Origin: a virus
Reading direction: 5' to 3' (one strand)
Length of the DNA: 10,497 nt
IMG/VR virus record: IMGVR_UViG_3300035698_031582
Shown here: piece by piece, positions 7,559-10,256 of the stretch
Position numbering within the stretch: position 1 is the first letter of the stretch
Layout: each line of letters opens with the position of its first letter
Position numbers and translations under genes: made by a program
Notes under the pieces: model-generated
Told to the model about the DNA's origin: nothing
Database searches by the model: none
The model's input: the letters and a program-made list of their open reading frames with translations, nothing else

Positions 7559-10256
7559 ATGCCAGATTATGAAAAGAATGAAAGAGAGATAGTTTTATCA
7601 CCTAATGAGTTTGCTCATATTAGGGATGTTACAAAGGGGGTTGTTACAACTTATGTAGGTCCTACTACAGTTACATTAACACCACAGATGGATCCGGTAA
7701 AATTTAATATAAAAACTAAAATCTTTGAGATTGTTGGTAAAGGTAATACAGAACAAGCAAAACAGCTTTTTGTTACCGCACCTGAGGGTTGGTATATTGT
7801 TTTAAAAAATCCTTGTAGGGATGATGAAACAAAACAACCAGATGTTGGAACAACTAATAATCCTAGAGAATTGGCTGTTGGACGTAAGGTTATTATTCAA
7901 GGTCCAATTTCTATGGCGTTATGGCCTGGTCAGATGGCTGATGTTCGGCAGGGTCATAAACTTAAGACTAATCAGTATTTAAAGCTGAAGGTTTATGATG
8001 AGAAAGCTGCAAGAGAAAATTGGGATAAAGCAGTTGTTAATGTAGCAAAAGATTCTGACGGGAAAGTAGTTGTTGATGAGGTAAAAAAACTTGATGGAAT
8101 AGAGGGTTCTGAGGAAGCGTTAGATAATGAAGGTAGTGTGGATAGTAAAGTAAATGATGAAAAATCTGTTCTTAAGTATATTGCGGATGCTAAAAAACTC
8201 GTTAATGGTCAGCGTATTATATTAAAGGGTACAGAAGCGGCTTTTTATATACCACCAACAGGTATAGAAGTTGAACCTGAGATAGGTAATGAAGGTGAAT
8301 TGGTTTATGTGAGAAATGCTGTTACATTAGAAACTTTAGAGTATTGTATTCTTTTAGGTGAGGATGGCGAAAAAGAATATCCTCGTGGTGCAAAAGTTGT
8401 ATTTCCCGAACCAACGCAAGAGTTTGTTGAAGATGCTAAAAACAATAAGAAATTTAAGGCGTTAGAATTGAATGAAATTTCTGGTATTTACGTTAAAGTG
8501 TTGAAGAAATATAAGGAAGATAATGAGGATTATGAGGAAGGTGAAGAAGTATTTATTACAGGCGAACATTCTAAATTTTATTTTCCTCGTAGTGAACATA
8601 GTGTTATTCAATATGGAGAGGGTACAACTCTTCATTATGCGACGGCTATTCCAGGGGGAAGGTCGTTATGTTTTGGATCGTTTAGAAGGGGATGTAAGAA
8701 TCGAAGAAGGACCATCAATGTTTTTACCTAACCCAATTATGGAAGTAGTGCTTAGGAGGGCGTTGAGTGATAAGCAAGTAGAATTGTGGTTCCCTAATAA
8801 TGTAGAGGCAATGAAAATTAACGCTGGTTATAGGGAAGAAGTTGCTAATACATTTACAAATAATGAGCCGCATGTTTCGACTCGTGGTGGGTATAATGAT
8901 TTAAAAAAGAATAAAACACGTGGTATTTCAACAGCGGAGTCGTTGGGTGGTAGTGAATATTTAAATGCCATTTCGGAGGATGCTGGTGTTTTTAATGCTG
9001 GTGATCAAATAGATAGGAAAGACACTTATACTAAACCTAGAGTAATCACCCTTGATACAAAGTACGATGGTGTTATTATGATTAATGTGTGGCCTGGTTA
9101 CGCTGTGCAAATTGTAGGTAGCGATGGTAAACGCAAAGTGGTGGTAGGACCGCAAAATGTCTTTTTGGAATATCATGAGGTACTTGATAAATTTTCATTA
9201 AGTACAGGTACTCCAAAAACCGATAGAAATAAGATTGTTGATGTGTATTTGCAAGTAGAGAATAATAAGGTTTCTGATATTGTTAGAATCGAAACATCGG
9301 ATATGGTTGAAGTTGATATTAAATTGTCGTATCGTATGAAGTTTGATGGAGATTCTAAGAAATGGTTTAGTACAGATAATTATGTTAAATTATTGACTGA
9401 TCATATGAGAAGTTTGATTAAAGGTAATATGAAGAAATGTAATATTGAAAAGTTTTATTTAGATGGGGCTAATATTATTAGAGATGTTATTTTGGGTGAA
9501 AAGGATGACGAAACAGGTAAAAGAAAAGGTAGGAAGTTTGAAGAGAATGGGATGTTGATTTATGACGTTGAGGTTTTGGAAATATATATTAAGGATTTAG
9601 ATGTTAAGCAACTGTTGGAAAAAGCTTCAGAGCAAGCATTGAATCAATCGCTTAATATTAAAATTGAGGAATCAATGCTTGCGGCGGTTAAACGCAAAGA
9701 AACGATTAAACAAGAAACTTTTAATGCAGAGAATGGTACGTTGCTTTACAATGAGGAATTGAAACGAAAAGAGGTTGGTGCGGTAGCTGAAACTAAAGCT
9801 AAAGAGATTTCTACTAATCTTGATGGTGTAAAACAACAGTTGGCTGCGGATTTGGAGTCTGCGGAGGAATCTATGAAAGTTCTTGAAACAAAATTAGAAT
9901 CTAAACTTATGCAAGCTCAGAATAACGCGGGTGTTGAAAAGATTTCGCAAGATACTGAAATTGCGATACTCACATTAAGACAAGAGCTTAAGATTAAACA
10001 ACTTGAGGCACAAGTTGCTGCTGCAAAAGAACAGCTTGGTGCAATACCAGAAGGATTTATTGAGGCGATTACATTGCTTGGTGACAATTTTGAAACTGCT
10101 AAACTTGTCGAAAATTTTGGTGAGATGGCTGTTATTAAAGGTGAGAGCGTTTTGGATGTTGCAAATACTGTATTGAAAAATCTTCGTGTTCATTCGCATA
10201 TTGGTAATAGAATGAATAGTGGCGGTAAAAAAGATTTGTTTGAAGATTCTGTTTGA
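7559..10256 (+). CDS. Major Vault Protein (MVP)-like protein of ~900 aa, with MVP repeats, a shoulder domain and a long coiled-coil cap-helix. The frame breaks (+1 nt) at the G5 run 8654-8658, so it shows as ORFs 7520..8731 and 8523..10256.
   Basis: Likely start is ATG 7559 with RBS AGGGAGA (7545-7551), rather than the GTG 7520 used in the track. Alignment with human MVP: IVLSPNEFAHIRDVTKGVVTTYVGPTTV vs [38 protein letters not shown]...ALWPGQ vs RHYCTVANPV...PLYPGE; IILKGTEAAFYIPPTGIEVEPE vs WLFEGPGTYIPRKEVEVVE. In the second ORF: GEGRYVLDRLEGDVRIEEGPSMFLPNPIMEVV vs [41 protein letters not shown] vs SLSAGRPK; VRIETSDMVEVDIKLSYRMKFD vs [22 protein letters not shown] (shoulder). Then ~150 aa of Ala/Glu/Lys/Gln coiled coil (cap-helix). 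Removing one G from the GGGGG run gives a continuous ...HYATAIPGEGRYVLD..., which matches MVP ...[16 protein letters not shown]. Confidence 0.75.

Follow-up and report, generated by a model that had tools for sequence, protein, structure and literature searches.

A gene belonging to the major vault protein (MVP) family, and the frame break that interrupts it, were analysed in the IMG/VR virus record IMGVR_UViG_3300035698_031582, a stretch of 10,497 nt that is referred to here as the window. As written, the gene is distributed over two open reading frames (ORFs). ORF A lies in frame 2, begins at GTG 7520 or ATG 7559, and ends with TAA 8729-8731, and ORF B lies in frame 3 and runs from ATG 8523 to TGA 10254-10256. 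The two ORFs overlap by 209 nt, and ATG 7559, rather than GTG 7520, is probably the true start of ORF A. Removal of one G fuses ORF A and ORF B; the resulting product, 898 aa long from ATG 7559, is hereafter called the joined protein.

The MVP_shoulder domain (PF11978) was recognised in the joined protein at 1.4e-26, with 93 bits against a cutoff of 25, and the Vault_3 domain (PF17795) at 1.9e-8, with 34.8 bits against a cutoff of 28.8. Both Pfam domains fall downstream of the break. A homolog search of 5.8 billion proteins with the joined protein returned 2651 matches, and the best 120 of these were all single ORFs of 804-883 aa, which were 40-44% identical to the joined protein and covered 94-98% of it. 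The family profile used throughout was a hidden Markov model (HMM) made from 40 full-length homologs. Against this profile, ORF A as written aligned to positions 1-328 with 437 bits and ORF B to positions 326-820 with 481 bits, and the joined protein aligned over positions 1-820 with 924-931 bits. Since the two profile spans abut, ORF A and ORF B are adjacent halves of one protein. MVP chains in the PDB were matched at 1e-27 with the profile. When a model of the joined protein was submitted to Foldseek, the top 12 matches were MVP structures (E 9e-18 to 2.5e-14; mean predicted local distance difference test score, pLDDT, of the model 56.8; template modelling score, TM, ~0.17), and murine MVP R1-R7 crystal structures appeared at ranks 15, 16, and 18 with this same low-confidence model of the whole joined protein. 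In the AlphaFold model, the pLDDT was below 50 at residues 352-368, and the repeat region was too poor for a confident placement of the junction. The joined protein belongs to the MVP family, because its domain content, its collinearity with the homologs, and its best structural matches agree. Positions 7559-10256 are a single MVP gene of the bacterial/phage type, encoding about 898 aa, and not two genes. The initial annotation had likewise described one MVP-like gene split by a +1 break at a G run, and the adjacent profile halves, the invariant residues that flank the break, and the single-ORF homologs bear it out.

The encoded protein is about 80 aa longer than usual. Two lineage-specific acidic or low-complexity insertions were located at window positions 8047-8166 and 8851-9040 (residues ~163-202 and ~431-494). 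Both were missing from most homologs, poorly conserved, and modelled with a pLDDT below 50.

The sequence at the junction is CCAGGGGGAAGG, in which the G5 run occupies 8654-8658, and the codons around the run read GCG ACG GCT ATT CCA GGG GGA AGG TCG in frame 2. The window holds four G runs of at least five, compared with about seven expected from its composition, and the run at the break is one of them. The last codon with MVP homology in frame 2 is CCA (Pro, 8651-8653), and the first one in frame 3 is GAA (Glu, 8658-8660). Because residues that are invariant in the family flank the break on both sides (A363 and P365 are read in frame 2, R369 and Y370 in frame 3), the break is pinned to 8654-8657. 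It is real in the sequence as written and is of the +1 type, meaning that one nucleotide is too many or two are too few. The change from frame 2 to frame 3 at the G run had been placed correctly by the initial annotation; however, the frame-2 homology ends at 8653 and not at ~8651 as given there. No homology was present in the out-of-frame read-through: past the run, ORF A continues for 25 codons (GGRSLCFGSF...), and ORF B opens with 45 such codons that precede the run. The 209-nt overlap is therefore wrong-frame read-through and a by-product of the break, as had been claimed from the start. The features of the locus are listed in Table 1. The terminator-like hairpin downstream of the MVP gene, whose loop is 14 nt long, was missed by the consensus terminator scan, and the next gene after it begins at 10405.

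Table 1. Features of the MVP locus and its neighbourhood in the window
Feature	Position	Strand	Remarks
Shine-Dalgarno-like AAGGGAG	7543..7549	+	9 nt before ATG 7559; motif and spacing match other gene starts in the window
MVP-family gene, N-terminal 365 codons, frame 2, ending ...HYATAIP	7559..8653	+	Homolog-profile positions 1-328
G5 run, frame break	8654..8658	+	+1 type
MVP-family gene, C-terminal 532 codons and stop, frame 3, starting EGRYVLD...	8658..10256	+	Profile positions 326-820; Pfam Vault_3, MVP_shoulder
ORF A out-of-frame tail (…GRSLCFGSFRRGCKNRRRTINVFT), stop TAA 8729-8731	8659..8731	+	Outside HMM alignment
ORF B out-of-frame 5' extension (MRIMRKVKKYLL...)	8523..8653	+	Shine-Dalgarno-like AAGGAAG 5 nt before ATG 8523
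Weak local hairpin enclosing the G run (GACGGCU.UUCC/GGAAGGUCGUU)	8641..8667	+	Predicted by folding versus shuffles
Terminator-like hairpin (AGAGGTC...GGCCTCT) followed by T7	10285..10318	+	29 nt past the MVP stop; read from the sequence
CCA-adding/HD enzyme	1-2244	+	Listed ORF 67-2244 is incomplete, being cut by the window edge
NADAR+SLOG fusion	4525-5532	+	One-strand block with MVP
RlaP nucleotidyltransferase	5561-6550	+	One-strand block with MVP
PanD	6558-6923	+	One-strand block with MVP

A G4 run, which gives an uninterrupted AIPGEGRYV, had been proposed as the reconstruction of the intact gene, and the homologs speak against it. The junction was inspected in 75 homologs, namely 40 bacterial proteins, 3 bacterial loci, 2 huge-phage loci, and 30 IMG/VR phage loci, and P-x-G-E was present in all of them (75/75), which is one residue more than the G4 repair provides. 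In the 40 bacterial proteins, x was A in 29, H in 3, E, G, and P in 2 each, and V and K in 1 each. In the 30 IMG/VR phage loci, x was E, K, or V, with CCA GAR GGN GAA GGT CGT as the typical coding. The homologs carried no G tract at the junction, their codons being mostly CCN-GAR/AAG-GGN-GAA. Moreover, a version with two nucleotides added (AIPGGEGRYV) scored 930.7 bits against the family profile, 7 bits above the 923.7 bits of the G4 version. Since all inspected homologs carry the extra junction residue and the profile score is higher, the sequence comparison favours an ancestral CCA-NNN-GGN-GAA (P-x-G-E) that lost 2 nt, and such a loss more probably produced the break than the gain of one G. 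For the route of such a loss, the removal of 'AG' from CCA GAG GGG GAA would yield exactly CCAGGGGGAA; alternatively, a G7 run could have been shortened to G5. By another route, an earlier codon deletion could have been followed by the gain of 1 nt. If 2 nt were lost, the G5 run may be the product of the lesion and not a site of polymerase slip.

No second lesion was found in the MVP gene besides the break, and no stop codon occurred across the 532 codons downstream of it, in a sequence with 35% GC. The columns that are invariant among the 40 homologs were kept to a similar extent in both parts, 79 of 89 upstream (0.888) and 54 of 61 downstream (0.885) of the break, and the identity to the homologs, relative to the identity among the homologs, was 0.755 upstream and 0.715 downstream. 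The mean identity of the N-terminal 365-codon part to the homologs was 52%. A decayed pseudogene was considered and rejected on account of the single lesion and of the 88.5% of invariant columns kept downstream versus 88.8% upstream; if the MVP gene is a pseudogene, it is a very young one. The lesion is either very recent, not real, or compensated.

The lesion would not be real if the deposited consensus miscounts the Gs, in which case the true run would be in frame (G4, or G7 to give AIPGGEGRYV) and the gene would be intact and functional. We regard such a sequencing or assembly artefact as possible, if somewhat unlikely. It is consistent with the break lying exactly on one of the only four G runs of at least five, with the absence of any other defect in the gene and the equal conservation of its halves, and with the frequent breakage of database MVP fragments at G/C-rich Gly/Pro codons. 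In addition, the G7 reconstruction is the best match to the profile at 930.7 bits, and x is G in 2 of the 40 homologs. However, the other homopolymer runs of at least five in the window, 81 in number and including eight A7 (seven of them inside ORFs), a G6, and two G5, all leave the ORFs intact, so the sequence is not generally error-prone at homopolymers. Furthermore, a miscount of two bases is unusual in short-read data, and an equivalent frameshift in a phage MVP gene, described below, was reproducible across independent assemblies, which means that such alleles exist.

We favour a true frameshift mutation of very recent origin in the sequenced genome, an ordinary lesion that inactivates the gene, and put the chance of this at about even. 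We infer both that the lesion lies in the DNA rather than in the base-calling and that the protein is inactivated. A very small length change at 8654-8658 would shift the final 60% of the gene into the wrong frame. The product translated from ATG 7559 would then have 390 aa, consisting of 365 aa of vault repeats, a Gly encoded by codon 8654-8656, which is common to both frames, and 24 junk residues. The half with the shoulder and the cap helix would be missing or, at most, weakly expressed from an internal start, and ATG 8523 with its Shine-Dalgarno-like AAGGAAG could serve as such a start if the break is real. The intact homopolymers elsewhere, the 2-nt deficit, which is unlike the classic one-base homopolymer miscall, and the phage precedent hint at a real mutation rather than an artefact.

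Several points weigh against a real mutation. A gene that is otherwise flawless and has a single homopolymer lesion has the look of a sequencing or consensus error. If x was Gly, the true run would be G7, and a G7 read as G5 is a typical under-call in flow-based or nanopore data. In all collections searched, the closest relative reached 44-49% identity, so that the G run could not be compared. No close relative of the window came from megablast or blastn searches of phages, and blastn against phages gave no DNA likeness to known phages beyond ~100 nt of the NADAR gene; with tblastn, the phage matches were limited to three uncultured huge phages, at 39-41%. Viral contigs, scanned by protein and by DNA pattern, yielded nothing beyond 44-49% identity, and the homolog search with ORF A alone yielded nothing closer than that. 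The scan of genome contigs found one Parcubacteria locus (39%), the scan of metagenome contigs found no relative, and the exact look-up of seven window proteins found no match.

Breaks in other MVP genes bear on the origin of this one. All proteins recovered with ORF A alone as the query were under 700 aa, a set enriched for truncated genes; the homologs obtained were all truncated, with truncation points spread over profile positions 283-650. Two of the broken genes are interrupted at the same codon as the window gene, after AIP-x, and both breaks are of the +1 type. In L006 (2630-2660) there is an extra C in CCG GCC C GGC, and in L007 (1100-1125) 2 nt are missing in CCT GAG GGA GGG TCG. These are unrelated metagenomic MVP genes with different lesions, each occurring once. 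In several other broken homologs, the break lies ~20 codons downstream, at a conserved G-P motif. Because the lesions differ from case to case, the breaks are independent accidents, and the conserved Gly/Pro codons form G/C-rich runs that are natural hot spots for insertions and deletions. A conserved split as the cause of the recurrent breaks was rejected in view of the scattered truncation points and of the single, differing lesions of L006 and L007. Homologs in related genomes that are split at exactly this position into two independently conserved genes had been named beforehand as the observation that would speak for two genes; L006 and L007 do break there, but they do not form a conserved two-gene arrangement.

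The phage precedent is a C5 frameshift allele of the MVP gene in a phage of ~133-142 kb (IMGVR_UViG_3300045988_075249 / European Nucleotide Archive (ENA) ERZ843525 NODE_12; loci L008, L009, and L035). The DNA of this allele was identical in a JGI contig, an ENA SPAdes contig, and two Logan assemblies, and an intact C4 allele (L012) was present in a 99.8% identical contig from the same metagenome. Among near-identical members of the L008-lineage protein cluster (P0241-P0251), there were different frameshifts and also large stretches deleted from the interior of the gene (P0246, P0249). Inactivation of phage MVP genes at the level of strains is therefore real, and the L008 lineage suggests repeated loss of the MVP gene. 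In total, MVP homologs were found in 30 IMG/VR viral contigs of 12-240 kb (L012-L041), 29 of them intact; their identity was 45-100% with the L008 protein and 36-42% with the window protein. As a separate observation, P0241 equals P0151 save that a TAG stop is read as Gln (L009 10001-11038), and some gene caller had thus used a TAG-recoded code.

Besides sequencing error and mutation, both of which remain, the initial annotation had offered a slippery site or phase variation as the cause; these are disfavoured, as recoding signals and conservation were both lacking. In programmed recoding, the ribosome would shift by +1 on GGG_G (giving P-G-E) or by -2 after GGG-GGA (giving P-G-G-E), or the RNA polymerase would slip on the G run, and a short N-terminal product would be made together with some full-length MVP. 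The GGG_G at 8654-8657 permits perfect re-pairing of tRNA-Gly in the +1 frame, the frame downstream of the break is fully intact, a small hairpin at 8641-8667 encloses the site, and all four of the broken homologs examined were of the +1 type, two of them at the same codon as in the window. Nevertheless, we consider recoding very unlikely. The codons in the A site of the zero frame are neither stops nor rare (the 3340 codons of the window include 33 GGA and 37 AGG), and the upstream ACGGCTATTCCA is without a Shine-Dalgarno-like element at prfB-like spacing. Folds downstream of the run were no better than those of shuffled sequences (z = +0.9 and +0.1). The 101-nt stretch 8600-8700, which holds the hairpin at the run and two other hairpins, had a z of -2.3, the 81-nt stretch 8640-8720, in which the hairpin at the run also lies, had a z of -0.35, and an Rfam scan of the whole window gave no match. 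The genes of the window contain 12 other in-frame GGG_G, three of them in the MVP gene, none of which needs a shift, so that the genes do not avoid the motif, nor does it suffice for a shift. Conservation of the shift is lacking, in that the 120 best matches of the joined protein are single ORFs and 29 of the 30 phage MVP loci have one frame; the other breaks differ in sequence and position, and one has an intact sister allele. A G5 run is too short for known transcriptional slippage. With prfB-type +1 frameshifting, the window site shares the need for a +1 shift and a P-site codon that could re-pair in the +1 frame, but it lacks the in-frame stop or hungry codon, the upstream Shine-Dalgarno element at 3-nt spacing, and the conservation of the site.

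A phase-variable contingency locus, in which the length of the G tract would switch at high frequency and turn MVP on and off in the population, is extremely improbable. The homopolymer does lie within a coding region, a C4/C5 polymorphism separates near-identical phage genomes at another run of a homologous gene, and the family profile would accommodate a G7 'on' state. However, G5 is shorter than hypermutable tracts, which in phase variation are usually 7 or more, and the homologs have no G tract at the junction. The phase-variable poly-G/poly-C genes of Neisseria, Haemophilus, and Campylobacter resemble the window gene in that the length of an intragenic G homopolymer sets the reading frame; the tract in the window differs in having only 5 bases and in not being present in the homologs.

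A real break would be tolerated if the gene were functionally split, with the C-terminal half translated separately, for example from ATG 8523, and the two polypeptides assembling. ORF B is intact and has a Shine-Dalgarno-like AAGGAAG 5 nt before ATG 8523, and the split phage allele (L008/L009) keeps both halves open. A functional split is highly improbable all the same. The break falls inside the invariant block AIP|GE.RY and, according to a profile alignment to rat MVP (~residues 376-399) and a low-confidence model, apparently between strands of a repeat domain rather than at the edge of a domain. Among the 120 best matches and the 30 phage loci, no lineage had a conserved split, and ORF B would bear 45 junk residues. 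The Shine-Dalgarno-like motif with ATG 8523 was considered separately as evidence for a second gene and was rejected, the combination occurring by chance at ~4% of non-start ATGs. There is a slim chance that full-length MVP is made by +1/-2 recoding at GGG_GGA from a real G5, or that the halves work as a split vault protein. If so, a regulated or split cage protein would be encoded in a phage-like genome, with RNA-repair and NAD/ADP-ribose enzymes as its neighbours.

As for these neighbours (Table 1), the CCA-adding/HD, NADAR+SLOG, RlaP, and PanD genes share a one-strand block with the MVP gene, and the first 66 nt of the window extend the ORF of the CCA-adding enzyme upstream (…EEDSRRRDFTINSIVID). 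For the ORF listed from TTG 6904, ATG 6910 with an AAGGAG upstream is the more likely start. The base composition of the window is extreme (A 35%, C 9.8%, G 24%, T 31%), and the GC skew stays between +0.34 and +0.57 along its whole length; C runs of at least five are absent, and all genes are on the + strand. In the unrelated phage of ~140 kb (L009 1-21038), the MVP gene lies among genes for DUF2828/DUF7788, RlaP (faint), Metallophos, RNA ligase, isochorismatase, NAD synthase, and nSTAND3. Genes of RNA repair and of NAD/ADP-ribose metabolism thus recur beside phage MVP, which is reminiscent of eukaryotic vaults with their TEP1 NADase and bound ADP-ribose (bioRxiv 10.64898/2026.05.01.722283).

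We recommend that positions 7559-10256 be annotated as one MVP-family gene, labelled either a pseudogene or 'frameshifted; verify sequence', rather than as two genes that overlap. The frame break is of an ordinary kind, and the gene is of more interest than the break, being a divergent MVP homolog in a phage-like, extremely C-poor genome. MVP genes are common in large IMG/VR phages, near genes of RNA repair and NAD metabolism, and viral MVPs of Caudoviricetes ctOa11 and ct2Ri15, two gut phage metagenome-assembled genomes, are on record (bioRxiv 10.1101/2023.11.10.566534). If the frameshift is real, it would be one more sign that phages often lose or switch off their MVP genes, the L008 lineage being an example.

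Compared with the bacterial and phage MVP homologs, the joined protein is collinear over 94-98%, is 36-45% identical, and has the same domain order of N-terminal repeats, shoulder, and long cap helix. The window gene differs from them by its frame break, by the ~80 aa extra, and in that no sampled lineage exceeds 44-49% identity to it. The nearest parallel to the break itself is the phage allele of L008, L009, and L035. That allele differs from the window in site and sequence, lying 20 codons downstream of the window's site, and was shown to be real by its intact sister and by independent assemblies; like the window gene, it has a +1-type break at a five-base homopolymer (C5), keeps both halves open, and stands in a phage-like setting with an RlaP nucleotidyltransferase nearby.

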